Position numbers and translations under genes: made by a program. Positions 366-17,836 of a stretch of DNA of 64,000 nucleotides are shown in pieces; positions within the stretch are counted from its first letter, which is position 1; every line of letters starts with the position of its first letter. The stretch lies in NCBI GenBank assembly GCA_028688325.1, contig JAQTYI010000003.1:32116-96115 (forward strand), given 5' to 3'. The notes beneath the pieces are model-generated. The model worked only from the letters and a program-made list of their open reading frames with translations. It ran no database searches and was not told where the DNA came from. This DNA comes from Candidatus Portnoybacteria bacterium (lineage in GTDB: Bacteria; Patescibacteriota; Minisyncoccia; Portnoybacterales; GWB1-42-6).

Positions 366-384
366 GATACCGACTGTCTCTTTC

Positions 385-447
385 TGTCATCCTGAGCGAA
401 GCGAAGGATCTTTAATAGATTTTTCGCCCTACGGGCTCAGAATGACA
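385..447. repeat. TGTCAT...ATGACA palindromic repeat
   Basis: tgtcatcctgagcgaagcgaaggatct...agatttttcgccctacgggctcagaatgaca. Confidence 0.85.
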
Positions 448-457
448 AAATAATAAA

Positions 458-745
458 TCAGTCCTTAAAATCCAATAAATCCTTAAATTCCGGGTTTTTG
501 ATTTTTATCAATTCTATTTTTTTGTTTCTAATCCAACCTTTTATTTTCTTTTCGGCGCATATCGCATCTTCCGGATTATTAAAAACCTCATAAAAAACTA
601 ATTTATTAACTTTATATTTTTTAGTAAATCCCGGCGTTAAACCGTTCTTATGCTCATACATTCTCCTATACAAATTATTTGTGATGCCCGTATATAAAAC
701 AGAGTTTGTATAATTGGTAGCAATGTATATATAATAATTTTTCAT
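458..745 (-). CDS. Small GIY-YIG nuclease family protein
   Basis: YYIYI...LYTGIT..L.RR..EH...AI..EKKIK.W...NP motif pattern; AT-rich. Confidence 0.9.
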   Translation of the reverse strand: MKNYYIYIATNYTNSVLYTGITNNLYRRMYEHKNGLTPGFTKKYKVNKLVFYEVFNNPEDAICAEKKIKGWIRNKKIELIKIKNPEFKDLLDFKD

Positions 746-3919: not shown

Positions 3920-5263
3920 TCAATCCCTCGCCTTCTGTTTTAAAACTACTAATTCGGTAAGCTTATAAACATCCCCCGCGCCCATAATCACGCAAATGTC
4001 GCCCGGCTGAAGATTTTTACGCAAATATTCCGCTGCCTCATCAAAATTAGACGCGTAAATAATATTTTCCGATTTACCCTGATCCTGCAGGCGAAGGGCT
4101 AATTTTTCCGAGCTCACTTTTTGCCTGATATCGTCTTTTTCCCTCCCCGTCGCGCTGTAAATCGGTAAAATAATTGTTTTATCTGCCGCGCCGAACGCGC
4201 CGACAAATTGGTCAAAAAAATCGTAAGTGCGCTGGTATTGGTGCGGCTGAAAAACGCACCAGAGTTTCCCTCCCCACTTTGTAAAAGGGGGGTCGGGGGG
4301 GATTTTTTTCAATAGCTCCCGCGCCCCCTCCAGCGTCGCTTTTATTTCTGTCGGATGATGGCCGTAATCATCATAAATTTTGGCGCCATTTAATTCACCT
4401 TTATACTCCATGCGCCGCCAAGCGCCGGTAAATTCATTTAGCGCTTCAACGGCAATTTTTTCATCAATGCCCAAAACTTTCGCCACGGCCAGCGCCGCGT
4501 TGGCATTGGAAACATTATGCTTGCCGGGAATTTTCAGATTCAGTTTTAGCTTATTTTCCGAGCTATATTTTTCAACGCGTAGTTTAAGATCCGCGCTTAT
4601 GAGCTTGGCAACATTTTCGTCTTCGCCATTTACAACTAAGATTCCGTCTTCCGGCAAATGCAAAATATATTCGCCGAAAGTTTCCATGATCTCGGGCAAG
4701 CCGCCTTTATAGGTATCCAGGTGCTCTTCCTCAATATTCAGCAGCACCAAAATCTTCGGCCAATAATTCAAAAACGACTTATCATATTCGTCCGCTTCTA
4801 TCACCAGATACTTACTTGTTCCCGGTCTGAAGTTGCTATTGCCCCACTCTTTGAGTTTCGTGCCCAAGATCACCGTCGGGTCCAGCCCGGCTTTCTCCAT
4901 CATCAAACCGATCATTGCCGTCGTTGTGCTTTTGCCGTGCATGCCGGAAACGGCAATTGTGTATTTTTCACGCGTCAGATCACCCAATGCCGCGGCATAT
5001 TTTTGCGTTTTCACGCCAAGCCGCCTGGCTTCAACCAATTCCGGATTATCCTCTTGCACCGCCGCACTAAATATCACGCAGTCCGACTGCGTGATATTTA
5101 GTGCTTTATGGCCGATGTAAATTTTTACGCCCAACTTTCTCAATTCCGCTACTGTTTCGTTTTTCACCGCGTCCGATCCGCTCACTTCGTCCCCTTGCGC
5201 CAAAAAATACCGCGCCAAGGCGGAAACGCCGATTCCTCCGATACCGATAAAATGAATTCTCAT
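3920..5263 (-). CDS. murC: UDP-N-acetylmuramate--L-alanine ligase
   Basis: IHFIGIGGIG, GMHGKSTTT, EADEYD, DDYGHHPTE, VFQPH. Confidence 0.95.
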   Translation of the reverse strand: MRIHFIGIGGIGVSALARYFLAQGDEVSGSDAVKNETVAELRKLGVKIYIGHKALNITQSDCVIFSAAVQEDNPELVEARRLGVKTQKYAAALGDLTREKYTIAVSGMHGKSTTTAMIGLMMEKAGLDPTVILGTKLKEWGNSNFRPGTSKYLVIEADEYDKSFLNYWPKILVLLNIEEEHLDTYKGGLPEIMETFGEYILHLPEDGILVVNGEDENVAKLISADLKLRVEKYSSENKLKLNLKIPGKHNVSNANAALAVAKVLGIDEKIAVEALNEFTGAWRRMEYKGELNGAKIYDDYGHHPTEIKATLEGARELLKKIPPDPPFTKWGGKLWCVFQPHQYQRTYDFFDQFVGAFGAADKTIILPIYSATGREKDDIRQKVSSEKLALRLQDQGKSENIIYASNFDEAAEYLRKNLQPGDICVIMGAGDVYKLTELVVLKQKARD

Positions 5264-6680: not shown

Positions 6681-6852
6681 CGTGCATACGGAAAATTTTA
6701 ATTAGACCGGGAGCGAGGATTTACTTTTCTGAAACGCTCAGTTTTGCTTGCTTTCTCTGTTCGCCGCGGCGAACAGAGAAAGCAAGCAAAACTGCGTGAG
6801 TGAAATTTTCTACGCTGGGGAAAATTTCACGATTTCAGGAAGCAAATCCGAG
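6681..6852. repeat. Long structured intergenic repeat
   Basis: Collinear with 36090-36261 (gcatacg...gagcgaggatttactt..ctgaaacgctcagttttgc...tccgag). Confidence 0.8.
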
Positions 6853-6903
6853 TAATCCTATATTTGCTATATTATCACAGCCAATGCTAAAATCAAACAA
6901 AAC

Positions 6904-8958
6904 ATGCGCCTTTTTGATATCATACCGCTCGCCAGAATTCCCGCCGCCTTGCCTCAAGTTTTGAGCTATTTTTCCGGCCAAAATCTACCAAACGGCGCTT
7001 TGGTCCAAATCCCTTTAGGTAGAAGAAAAGAAGAAGGCGTTGTTGTGGGCGCGCATGACATTGCCGATTACAAAATGGAAATAAAAAGCGCGGATTTTGA
7101 ATTGCGCAATATCAGCAAAATACTTTCGGCAAAACCCGTCTTAACGGCTAAACAAATTGAACTGGCTTTATTTCTGGGCCAATATTATTTTTGCTCACCG
7201 GGAATTTTTATCAAAATGTGTTTGCCGCCAAAAAACACCCTTATTCGTCATTCTGAGCGAAGCGAAGAATCTCTCGCGAATGCGAGGCCCAAAAAACAAA
7301 CCTTAATTCTCGCCCCAACAATAGCCCAAGCTGAAAAAATCTCCACTGGCTATAAAAACGCGGTTTTATGGCACAGCGGCCTTAAAAACAAGCAATTAAA
7401 AGAATCCTGGCAAAAAATTAAAACCGGCCAAGTGCAAACAATAATCGGCACTCGCTCAGCCGTTTTTTTGCCTTTTAACGGCCTGAAAGAAATTATCATT
7501 GAAGACGAGACAAACCCCAACCATAAGTCCTGGGATATGTTTCCTCATTATGACAGCCATATAATCGCGCAGAAGCTGGCGGAAATTTTTAGATGCAAAG
7601 TAATCTATAAAGATTTCGGTCATCCTGAACGAAGTGAGGGATCTAAAAAAGATTCTTCGGCTAATAAATCTCACGCAGTCAGAGTGCGTGAATTCAAACC
7701 GACTATTGTTGATATGAGAGAGGAACTTAAAGACGGAAATTTTTCCATTTTCAGCGTTGATCTTTACGAAGCCGCCAAAGACGCTTTGGCCGAAAATAAG
7801 CAAGTTATCTTATTCATAAACCGTCGCGGCGCGGCGAATTTCGTTCTGTGCCGCGACTGCGGTTATGTCGCCAACTGCCCAAATTGCGATTCCCCGATGG
7901 CATATCATCTGATAAACAATAGGCCTTCTTTATTTTGCCATCATTGCGGCGCCAAAGATATCCTTCCTAAACTTTGCCCCAAGTGCAAAAACTGGCGCAT
8001 CAAAACCGTGGGCTCTGGCTCCCAAAAAGTTGAAGCGGAAACAAAAAAATTCTTTCCGGACGCCAAAATTTCGCGCCTGGACAGCGACAGCGCGCCAAAG
8101 CCCAAAGACCAGCAAAAAATCATTGCTGATTTTATTGATAAGAAAATCGATGTCTTGATAACCACCCAGATAATTTTTTCCTGGCTGGAAGAACTGGCCG
8201 CGGCAAAACCGCAAGTTGTGGGAATATTATCAGCCGACACGCTTTTGCATCTGCCTGATTTCCGTTCGGGCGAACAGACATTTCAGACAATACGAGCATT
8301 ACAATCTTTACAAAATAACGCCCCCCGACCCGCAGCAGCGGGTCTTCCCCCTCTTAAATTAAGAGGGGGCGAGGGGGAGTTATCACAAAACAATTTCATC
8401 ATCCAAACCTACAACCCGGAAAATTCCGTCTTAAAATATATCCGCGATAATGACCGCAAGGGTTTTATCCAAGAAGAAAATGAAACCCGCCAGGCGTTGA
8501 ATTACCCGCCATTCTCGCAAATCGTTAAGCTAACCTTCCGACATCGTGATGCCGACAAAGCCGGGCAAGAAGCAAAAATTTTAGCGGCTAAACTAAATAA
8601 TGCTCTGCCCTCCCTTTCTGTCATTCCCGCCCCGCATCAAGTGCGGGGTAAACTGGAGACGGGAATCCAGGCCCTGACTCTTGAATCTGGATCCCGGGTC
8701 AAGCCCGGGATGACAAATAACAAGTACGCTGATAACATAGAAATATCCACCGCCCTGCCCGCCTTCAATCCGCGCTCGCGCGGAAAATTCGTTTGGAATA
8801 TAATAATAAAATTTCTTTCGGCTGCGGCTCCCTCCTTTTCCAAAGGAGGGTTGGGGAGGATTTTTACTACCTCCGAATTCCTTCAAAAAAGAAACTCTGT
8901 CTTGCAATATGTCCCGCAAAATTGGGAAATAGATGTAGATCCTGAAAATCTATTATGA
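6904..8958 (+). CDS. priA: Primosomal protein N' (helicase motifs degenerate, repeat-derived inserts)
   Basis: GTRSAVFLP, FINRRG, four CxxC pairs, PDFRSGE, YPPF, IDVDP. Confidence 0.9.
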   Translation: MRLFDIIPLARIPAALPQVLSYFSGQNLPNGALVQIPLGRRKEEGVVVGAHDIADYKMEIKSADFELRNISKILSAKPVLTAKQIELALFLGQYYFCSPGIFIKMCLPPKNTLIRHSERSEESLANARPKKQTLILAPTIAQAEKISTGYKNAVLWHSGLKNKQLKESWQKIKTGQVQTIIGTRSAVFLPFNGLKEIIIEDETNPNHKSWDMFPHYDSHIIAQKLAEIFRCKVIYKDFGHPERSEGSKKDSSANKSHAVRVREFKPTIVDMREELKDGNFSIFSVDLYEAAKDALAENKQVILFINRRGAANFVLCRDCGYVANCPNCDSPMAYHLINNRPSLFCHHCGAKDILPKLCPKCKNWRIKTVGSGSQKVEAETKKFFPDAKISRLDSDSAPKPKDQQKIIADFIDKKIDVLITTQIIFSWLEELAAAKPQVVGILSADTLLHLPDFRSGEQTFQTIRALQSLQNNAPRPAAAGLPPLKLRGGEGELSQNNFIIQTYNPENSVLKYIRDNDRKGFIQEENETRQALNYPPFSQIVKLTFRHRDADKAGQEAKILAAKLNNALPSLSVIPAPHQVRGKLETGIQALTLESGSRVKPGMTNNKYADNIEISTALPAFNPRSRGKFVWNIIIKFLSAAAPSFSKGGLGRIFTTSEFLQKRNSVLQYVPQNWEIDVDPENLL
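8619..8715. repeat. 97-bp GTCAT...ATGAC element inside priA
   Basis: About 7 mismatches to the intergenic copy at 12823-12919. Confidence 0.9.
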
Positions 8959-9905
8959 CAAAAACACAGATAAAGATTATTTTCATGGGCACGCCGGAAT
9001 TTGCCGTGCCGATTTTGAAAAAACTGGCCGACAGCGAATATAAGCCGACCGCGGTTTTTTGCGCGCCGGATAAACCGGTGGGACGCAAACAAACTCTGGC
9101 TCCTCCGCCGGTTAAGATTTTAGCGCAAAAATATGGCCTCCCTGTTTACCAGCCAAAAGATAAAAACGAGCTTTCCTATCAGCTAAAAGCTATCAGCTAC
9201 CAGCTAATAATCACCGCCGCCTACGGCCTGATCTTTTCCAAAGATGTCCTGAACGCGCCCCAATACGGCTGCATCAATATTCATCCGTCGCTCCTGCCCA
9301 AATACCGGGGCCCTTCGCCCATTCAGGCCGTCATATTGAACGGCGACCCGGCCACCGGTGTGACAATCTATAAAATGGACGAACAAATCGACCATGGAGA
9401 GATAATCGCGAATCGCGAATCGCGAATCGCGAATCGCAAAATCACCATGCCCGAATTATCTCGAGAACTGTCCGTCCTTGGCGCGGATTTATTATTAGAC
9501 ACCCTTCACGATTGGCTTGCCGGCAAAATCACGCCGGCGCCGCAAGACGAAAGCCAAGCGGCTTTCACCAAAATAATTGCCAAGGAAAACGGCCAAATTA
9601 ACTGGCAAAAATCCGCGCAAGAAATAGAACGGCAAATTCGTGCTTATACCCCTTGGCCAGGCAGCTATTCGCAAGTCGCCAATGGCCAATCGCTAATCGT
9701 CAAAATACTGGAAGCCGAAATATCAGATACAAGCGCCGGAAAACGAGCCGGTGGAATATTTTTGACCGCCGATAATGACCTGGCCGTTCAAACAGGCAAC
9801 GGCGCACTCATCATTAAAAAACTCCAGCTTGAGGGTGGCAAACCGCTTTCTGCTCCAAATTTTCTCCGCGGACATAAAGATATTATCGGAAAGATTTTAA
9901 ATTAG
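8955..9905 (+). CDS. fmt: Methionyl-tRNA formyltransferase
   Basis: FMGTPEFA, PDKPVGR, NIHPSLLPKYRGPSPI. Confidence 0.95.
   Translation: MTKTQIKIIFMGTPEFAVPILKKLADSEYKPTAVFCAPDKPVGRKQTLAPPPVKILAQKYGLPVYQPKDKNELSYQLKAISYQLIITAAYGLIFSKDVLNAPQYGCINIHPSLLPKYRGPSPIQAVILNGDPATGVTIYKMDEQIDHGEIIANRESRIANRKITMPELSRELSVLGADLLLDTLHDWLAGKITPAPQDESQAAFTKIIAKENGQINWQKSAQEIERQIRAYTPWPGSYSQVANGQSLIVKILEAEISDTSAGKRAGGIFLTADNDLAVQTGNGALIIKKLQLEGGKPLSAPNFLRGHKDIIGKILN
9404..9437. repeat. (AATCGCG)n heptamer tandem repeat inside fmt
   Basis: Four full copies plus AATCGC, encoding IANRESRIANR. Confidence 0.9.
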
Positions 9906-12792: not shown

Positions 12793-12984
12793 CCGCGCAT
12801 ACGAAAAACTTTACACCTTCTTTGTCATTTCCGCCCCACATCAAGTGCGGGGTAAACTGGAGACGGGAATCTAGGCCTTAACCCCTGAATCTGGATCCCG
12901 GGTCAAGCCCGGGATGACAACTGGTGTTGTCAATTTTATCGTCGGGCGCAGTTTTTGCGCCACTTTTTGCTGCCAAAAAGTGGC
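12793..12984. repeat. Long structured repeat with nested 97-bp GTCAT element (12823-12919)
   Basis: Ends match the copies at 17855 and 32249 (cgcgcatacgaaaaa / aattttatcgtc.g.gcg...ccaaaaag). Confidence 0.8.
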
Positions 12985-17245: not shown

Positions 17246-17836
17246 TTATTTACTCACCTTCACTTTCGCCGCTCTTATAATTTTTCCATTTAATAAATAT
17301 CCCTTCTGCACTTCCTCCACGACCGCGCCTTCGCCGACATCCTTCGCTTCCACACACTCAACAGCTTCATGCAGCGCCGGATCGAATTTTTCACCAACCG
17401 CCTTCATCTCCATTAAGCCGTGTTTCGATAAAATCTTCATTAATTGGTCGCGTACAATTTTTAAACCCTCTACTCCTCCCTTTGAATTTAACCCCTCTTC
17501 GCCACCCTTTAAAAGGGGGGTTGGGGGGTTAGAACTTTTTTCCCCGCGCTCCTGCGCTGCTGAAGCGTCTAAAGTATCCAGCACGGGCAGCAAATCCCTC
17601 AATAGCCCTTCCCCGAACATCTTGCTCCACTCGCCCATCTGCTCTTCCTGGCGCCGCCTGTAATTTATAAAATCCGCCTGCGCCCGCTGCCAGCCCGCCA
17701 GATTATCCTGTTTTTCTTTCTGGCACTGCTCCAGTTTTTCTTTCATCTTTCCCAGCTTGTCTTTCATATCAACCGCGGCACTTTCGTTGTTTTCTTCTTC
17801 GTAATTTATATCTCGGCCTTTTTCTTCTTTATCCAT
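17246..17836 (-). CDS. grpE: Nucleotide exchange factor GrpE
   Basis: RAQADFINYRRR, LLPVLD, FDPALHEAV, QKGY.L...IRAAKV. Confidence 0.95.
   Translation of the reverse strand: MDKEEKGRDINYEEENNESAAVDMKDKLGKMKEKLEQCQKEKQDNLAGWQRAQADFINYRRRQEEQMGEWSKMFGEGLLRDLLPVLDTLDASAAQERGEKSSNPPTPLLKGGEEGLNSKGGVEGLKIVRDQLMKILSKHGLMEMKAVGEKFDPALHEAVECVEAKDVGEGAVVEEVQKGYLLNGKIIRAAKVKVSK

Follow-up and report, generated by a model that had tools for sequence, protein, structure and literature searches.

A PriA without helicase motifs in a Candidatus Portnoybacteria genome: likely a fork-binding scaffold with short genomic repeats in its loops

The priA gene of this Candidatus Portnoybacteria genome encodes a PriA without helicase motifs that likely serves as an ATP-independent, fork-binding scaffold, and the six repeat copies that it carries likely landed later, in loops that tolerate them. 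We give this reading, which draws on sequence comparison, a structure model and analogy with known systems, a probability of roughly three in four. The gene lies in a window of 64,000 nucleotides (assembly GCA_028688325.1, contig JAQTYI010000003.1, positions 32,116 to 96,115), and close homologues of its product carry the source labels Candidatus Portnoybacteria, Parcubacteria or Patescibacteria. The features of interest, in window coordinates, are as follows.

458-745, minus strand: single-domain GIY-YIG gene (PF01541), a candidate partner nuclease, closely followed on its downstream side by a full family-A element (381-452); the unit spans 381..745
6904..8958, plus strand: priA, an open reading frame of 684 aa without the winged-helix domain, the Walker A segment and motifs III and VI
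6937..7227 (aa 12-108), plus strand: retained 3'-DNA-binding domain (PF17764, E 4.7e-15)
7246..7290, plus strand: site 1, partial copy of a family-A repeat, lying in the short linker that remains after deletion of the motif 0/Walker A segment
7501..7551 (aa 200-216), plus strand: degenerate motif II followed by a conserved aromatic-rich loop
7619..7662, plus strand: site 2, first element, partial family-A repeat directly behind the strand at whose end motif III is normally found
7664..7694, plus strand: site 2, second element, family-B hairpin with a further in-frame copy in a Y1 (PF01797) gene of the genome
7849..7986, plus strand: Cys-rich region with four CxxC pairs, all eight Cys kept in 114/114 motif-less homologues
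8315..8384, plus strand: site 3, double hairpin of family C, adding 24 aa relative to sisters, in the loop that follows the usual motif VI helix
8618..8717, plus strand: site 4, family-D element in a loop of the C-terminal domain; its 3' hairpin (8687-8715) fits the published Ssn-related motif (SRM) pattern
8826..8865, plus strand: site 5, family-E hairpin in a second loop of the C-terminal domain
8955..9905, plus strand: fmt, a conserved neighbour overlapping the priA stop
12823..12920, plus strand: intergenic family-D copy, 92.9% identical to insert 4 over 98 nt with 7 mismatches (blastn)

The product of the gene scores 324.8 bits against TIGR00595 (cut-off 230.35), and this is the only match above the cut-off in the 0.91-Mb, 100%-complete genome. 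A second, motif-bearing PriA was sought in the genome and none was found; the weaker matches are RecG- or Mfd-type helicases where checked. The position of fmt, within 1.5 kb downstream of priA, is shared by 15/20 order-level and 40/64 class-level loci. The protein retains the 3'-DNA-binding domain (3'BD), two RecA lobes, the Cys-rich region with its eight cysteines and the C-terminal domain. The winged-helix domain is absent. The linker after the 3'BD has a median length of 33 aa in order-level relatives, 83 aa in motif-bearing Patescibacteria PriAs, in which a short linker already takes the place of the winged helix, and 221 aa in the GTDB set. A first-pass annotation of this DNA had reported that motifs I, III and VI are missing, that motif II reads EDET and that the Cys-rich region is intact, and a pattern check of the protein agrees. 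Searches for the Walker A, DExH and motif VI patterns across the whole protein returned none, and motif III is missing as well; the canonical motifs are not to be found elsewhere in the chain. By sequence, this protein is a PriA orthologue and not an active SF2 helicase.

The same state extends far beyond this genome. Among 117 full-length homologues, a set that excludes one chimera-like record (P0070) and two partial records, Walker A and motif VI are both present in three and both absent in 114. At the level of the class, PriA was found in 119 of 201 genomes at E ≤ 1e-20, and we sampled 69 loci (the 29 best-scoring and 40 spread over the ranking), one of which duplicates a relative, leaving 68. 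Walker A is absent in 67 of these 68, with or without inserts; degeneration of Walker A and of motifs II, III and VI is seen in almost every class PriA sampled. In this family the Walker A segment has been deleted outright, and the subgroup that includes this gene has lost a further 13-20 aa after motif III. A Walker-A-like motif and motif VI remain in a single class PriA of the sample (L038, G192:C5), which nests among motif-less PriAs: a FastTree tree groups the motif-less proteins with a support of 0.97, yet this locus falls inside the group, and branches are long. The motor may therefore have been lost several times, or the long branches mislead the tree. Elsewhere in the phylum, where 86 of 151 genomes have a PriA match, Walker A is present in all 30 best-scoring loci and in none of 20 others in the aligned column; these 20 were chosen as late-starting or weak matches, and both sets are selected, so that no frequency can be derived from them.

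When priA is compared with the rest of the genome by blastn, five multi-copy stretches stand out (7239-7290, 7614-7694, 8345-8383, 8615-8723 and 8827-8865), with a depth of up to 11-35 genome matches each; the third reaches 8315 against one copy. The gene holds six in-frame repeat copies at five sites, from five genome-wide families that we call A to E. The first-pass annotation had described five in-frame palindromic inserts in a frame that stays open. The five sites and the open frame stand, but the copies number six, because site 2 combines A and B, and the palindromic character varies: it is pronounced in B, C and D (DNA-fold z of -4.4, -7.4 and -4.0), weak for E (-1.7) and not significant against shuffles for the two family-A copies (-0.4 and -1.1), which are partial elements. 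The likeness of insert 4 to intergenic sequence at 12823-12919, put earlier at about seven mismatches, was reproduced by blastn. Clear target-site duplications were sought and none was found; short A-rich words are shared by the flanks of only three of the six copies. In inserts 2-4 most other frames contain stops and the used frame has none, as expected if the inserts are translated. Immediately outside the gene, 48 bp upstream, lies a repeat of another family, ∼150 bp long (6700-6856). This repeat contains a perfect palindrome of 56 bp (6739-6794), and the rest of the genome holds at least 12 long matches to it.

The five sites are also the places where PriA length varies most. Among 96 close homologues, the standard deviation of length is 5-11 aa at these sites, most other 30-residue windows having values below 3 and three windows values of 4-5, and 16-23 parsimony changes between long and short states fall on the tree per site. 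The A-E profiles match 7 of the 22 other order-level priA genes 13 times, and 13/13 matches lie within the five sites. The resident family changes from lineage to lineage: site 2 holds A and B here and E in relatives, site 3 holds C here and A or D in relatives, and site 4 holds D here and C or E in relatives; at site 5, a family-E insert recurs in three relatives. The 13 matches comprise eight distinct site-family pairs, some of which may share ancestry, and the family assignments draw on 23 order-level DNA loci and on loop lengths, with protein-only homologues (P identifiers) left out. The profiles, specific to this genome, match only one duplicate locus among the more distant class loci. 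At site 1 of P0007-P0099, many linkers contain low-complexity peptides rich in Lys, Gln, Asn and Ile, apparently from yet another short repeat.

As a control we compared 15 RecG and 10 Mfd loci of the same taxonomic family, in which the motifs are all kept. RecG carries seven and Mfd nine repeat matches (16 in total), none of them after motif III or at motif VI. In all 25 of these loci the post-motif-III stretch has 43 aa and the motif VI stretch 32-33 aa, against 20-59 and 21-52 aa, respectively, in the PriAs of 14 family genomes. Because RecG and Mfd keep these lengths despite inserts elsewhere, sites 2 and 3 were probably opened by the loss of the motor. This is firmly supported for site 3, where motif-bearing PriAs have a motif VI stretch of 27-28 aa in 30/30 cases, with the proviso that the comparators are other helicases than PriA. 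The case for site 2 is weaker, because motif-bearing PriAs vary there (40-58 aa, with 43 in 18/30) and active Mfd accepts inserts just before motif III (three matches). Sites 4 and 5 are loops of the C-terminal domain and are unrelated to the motor. Loops that are closed in active SF2 helicases but open here provide independent evidence of an unused motor. One Mfd-type helicase of this genome with intact motifs and repeat inserts (L002, G000:C3:397162-399423) has 753 aa and is much shorter than solved Mfd chains (1140-1170 aa).

A more far-reaching possibility, which we hold to be doubtful, is that loss of the PriA motor in much of the Patescibacteria made the catalytic loops into landing pads for several nuclease-linked repeat families and that repeated insertion followed by imprecise loss now trims the dead motor, as in the 13-20 aa missing after motif III in this subgroup, and cycles new peptides through it. 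Selfish DNA would then drive the last steps from an enzyme to a minimal scaffold, and the insertion sites would constitute a natural map of loops that no longer matter.

The repeats are not special to priA. Profiles seeded from the inserts detect 53, 11, 15, 47 and 44 copies of families A-E in the genome and none in a locally shuffled genome. These families occupy 52 sites in 36 ORFs, active enzymes among them; 58 of the 170 copies (34%) lie in ORFs of at least 150 aa, against 80% of the genome in such ORFs, a depletion which argues that most coding insertions are purged. In a seed-free census, 39 ORFs called mechanically contain 64 repeat segments between them; some of the ORFs are perhaps spurious, and a minority of the host genes carry a tool annotation. 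In-frame copies also occur in the window in a MurC-like gene (3920-5263; families B/E) and a GrpE-like gene (17246-17836; family E), both named from a reading of their sequence.

Several copies adjoin nuclease genes. The genome has 14 GIY-YIG, three DUF559 and two Y1 matches. Copies of A or D lie within 350 bp of 4/13 small GIY-YIG genes and near none of the other nine; family C lies on both sides of one DUF559 gene and E precedes the other two; one Y1 gene has family-B copies within it and upstream of it. From this adjacency, the GIY-YIG, DUF559 and Y1 nucleases probably spread the repeats beside them. The part of insert 4 at 8687-8715 fits the published SRM pattern, which has 35 matches in the genome against 0-3 in five simulated genomes; at the other priA inserts the pattern was sought without a match. 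The GIY-YIG gene at 458-745 matches no NCBIfam family. In the Y1 gene (PF01797, G000:C3:157703-158422), the family-B hairpin is read in the same frame as in priA, and a second copy lies at the gene start. Several of the 14 GIY-YIG matches (e.g. C3:177309, C3:184050 and C7:28434) adjoin, by eye, tRNA-like sequence and not copies of A-E.

The added peptides are likely neutral passengers with a quick turnover. An adaptive role, in which the new peptides or mRNA hairpins give PriA new binding or regulation, is improbable. priA does lead all ORFs in the number of A-E sites (five; Poisson P about 3e-4, corrected for 652 ORFs), and the recurrence of family E at site 5 would fit such a role. However, the census was seeded from priA and so favours it, the peptide at each site differs among relatives and is often absent, and confidence in the structure model is low at the insert cores (10-residue pLDDT means about 44-66).

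The first three inserts do lie at the places of the lost motifs, and this positional match, noted in the first-pass annotation, would fit the order of cause and effect implied there, in which motifs I, III and VI were destroyed by the repeats. Segment lengths argue against that order. At site 1, the segment measures 26 aa here, 17-18 aa in sisters and 74-81 aa in motif-bearing homologues, and insert 1 therefore occupies the scar left by an old ∼50-aa deletion that removed the Walker A segment. Site 2 measures 39 aa here, 21-24 aa in sisters and 43 aa in motif-bearing homologues; insert 2 therefore follows a strand that was already without motif III and the next 13-20 aa. At site 3 the corresponding values are 46, 22 and 27-28 aa, with 22 aa in 33/96 close homologues, so that the loop which received insert 3 had already lost 5 aa and motif VI. 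Alignment with sister PriAs, which had been proposed as the way to order the events, places motif loss before insertion: the nearest homologues, P0002 and P0003 (77% identity), lack the same motifs and have no repeat at sites 1-3, and the 67 of 68 class loci without Walker A are unmatched by A-E save for the one duplicate. The inserts are recent, because they are 83-100% identical to other genomic copies, whereas the motif-less state is common to proteins at 30-40% identity. Motif loss thus most likely came first, across the lineage, and insertion later, and we read the erosion of the motifs as stepwise and as long preceding the inserts. The idea that repeats removed the motifs is largely refuted and carries very little probability; what survives of it would be an ancient repeat-assisted deletion that has since eroded.

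There is just as little reason to regard priA as a decaying, non-functional remnant that gathers junk. In favour of decay, PriA was not found in 82/201 class genomes, on which account it may be dispensable in this group, and 18 genomes of another family in the same order (f6; G020, G024-G040) have only weak, non-PriA matches. Most of the genomes without a detected PriA are more than 90% complete. However, the frame in this genome is open, every insert is in frame, and priA is present in 16/16 family genomes. Outside the loops, dN/dS is 0.07-0.16 in 11/12 pairs (one is saturated, and dS is near saturation in most) and about 0.1 in all four regions, dead lobes included; by these ratios, priA is under purifying selection. 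The 114 motif-less homologues keep all eight Cys and the residues of motif IV, and large parts of their aromatic-rich loop and C-terminal core are likewise conserved. The structure prediction proposed earlier for the inserts places them as low-confidence loops, coil or short helix, on a PriA fold (mean pLDDT 86, pTM 0.85), and the best structural matches of the model are PriA itself (8fak, E 6.8e-38; 6dcr, Z 24.2, rmsd 5.9, 521 aligned).

Motif loss, the kept fold, selection and the precedent of Deinococcus PriA together support the earlier suggestion of an ATPase-dead scaffold, and the protein is likely a motor-less, ATP-independent, fork-binding one. The genome encodes DnaB, DciA, one SSB, RecG and an Mfd-type helicase; a DnaD-family protein was sought in it and none was found.

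The inserts have partial read support of the kind that the first-pass annotation had called for. Logan contigs of runs X1 and X2 span sites 2 and 3 with zero differences, and contigs of X1, X2 and X3 span site 5 without differences. At sites 1 and 4 the contigs end inside the insert, as expected from the repeats there, but cover the junctions of both sites. All four sequencing runs belong to one study, and the source sample may be among them. Exact skipping of an insert was sought at contig joints and seen in none of the 15 joints listed out of 26. That the inserts arose in assembly, or are cut out of the RNA ahead of translation, is the least probable reading of all: it could appeal to the contig ends at sites 1 and 4, to the single study behind the four runs and to the closed hairpins formed by elements C and D, but single contigs span sites 2, 3 and 5, in-frame inserts occupy the same sites in many independent relatives, and inserts 2-4 are free of stops in the frame that is used.

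In the course of events that we favour, the first two steps are seen in the sequences: the motif-bearing Patescibacteria PriAs have a short linker instead of the winged helix, and the motor motifs have decayed in almost every PriA sampled from the class, with deletion of the Walker A segment in this family and of 13-20 aa more in the subgroup. The protein would recognise forks through the 3'-binding domain, the aromatic loop, the Cys-rich region and the C-terminal domain and would reload DnaB, with DciA as a probable partner, and fork remodelling would fall to RecG or another helicase. A PriA-DciA partnership is itself only suggested in PMC9825169, in the text available to us. Small non-autonomous repeats would insert throughout the genome, probably spread by the adjoining GIY-YIG, DUF559 and Y1 nucleases; gene-breaking copies would be purged and in-frame copies would persist in tolerant loops. 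Judging from the RecG/Mfd control, sites 2 and 3 would be tolerant because the motor is dead, and sites 1, 4 and 5 would be ordinary linker or surface loops.

What is new here is the order of events, in which the motor went first, the finding that different repeat families settle in the same five loops, and the RecG/Mfd control. An attractive causal story has been corrected and a testable one remains. A PriA that is helicase-dead by its motifs is the rule in the sampled class of the CPR, down to deletion of the P-loop segment, which outlines a minimal PriA for replication restart. The repeats act as a natural insertion scan, in which loops that are shut in active SF2 helicases stand open in a dead one, and they show how a conserved protein, once its catalysis is lost, may take up new peptides from selfish DNA. 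A literature search judged from its listings, whose scope took in few subscription journals, returned no publication on a motif-less PriA or on in-frame palindromes in the CPR, and, with subscription journals again mostly outside its scope, none on repeats that flank DUF559 genes.

The closest precedent is the PriA pseudohelicase of Deinococcus radiodurans, which has no ATPase activity, does not unwind DNA, binds ssDNA and forks, and shows evidence of contact with DnaB (Lopper, Boone and Morrow 2015, PMC4504706, as far as that text was available). The conserved Walker A and B residues are absent from that protein as they are here, where fold and selection are kept. The sections available of a 2018 review name Deinococcus as the sole exception and state that E. 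coli PriA with the K230R substitution supports restart (PMC5778457). Unlike in Deinococcus PriA, the Walker A segment, the winged helix and the stretch after motif III have been deleted outright in the Patescibacteria protein, whose activity is here judged from its sequence, and the freed loops hold repeats. The PriAs of E. coli and Klebsiella (PDB 8fak, 6dcr and 4nl4) have the same domain order and fold as this one but possess a winged helix and intact motifs and are active as SF2 helicases; 6dcr, an engineered winged-helix deletion, is among the two best matches of our model.

Among known repeats, families A and D resemble the CGTC-tagged REPs (Di Nocera et al. 2013, PMC3733652) and the SRMs associated with Ssn nucleases, which are single-domain GIY-YIG proteins (PMC11893778): they share a GTCAT-type starting tag and a hairpin (clear for D, not for the two partial A copies in priA) and, as those are described in the parts of the two papers at hand, lie inside DNA-repair genes and in some cases flank small GIY-YIG genes. 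Unlike SRMs, the family-A copies in priA fail the strict SRM pattern, and families B, C and E are of other kinds, beside Y1 and DUF559 genes. The mobility of SRMs is merely proposed in PMC11893778, the available portion of which nowhere mentions Patescibacteria. Short repeats within insertion domains have been described for Y1 subclass 2.4 (PMC6006769, in the portion available). The likeness to the RPEs of Rickettsia, suggested in the first-pass annotation, is supported by analogy, in that both are repeats, palindromic here mainly in B, C and D, that sit in frame in housekeeping genes and add, or here would add, peptides (RPEs as described in the available text of PMC10969869), and in this genome multi-copy repeats are found both between genes and in frame in unrelated genes. 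The two differ in that RPEs measure ∼150 nt and the elements described here are five unrelated short families of 30-100 nt; five sites in one protein are affected, with loops refilled by different families across lineages, and the insertions are linked to the loss of a motor.
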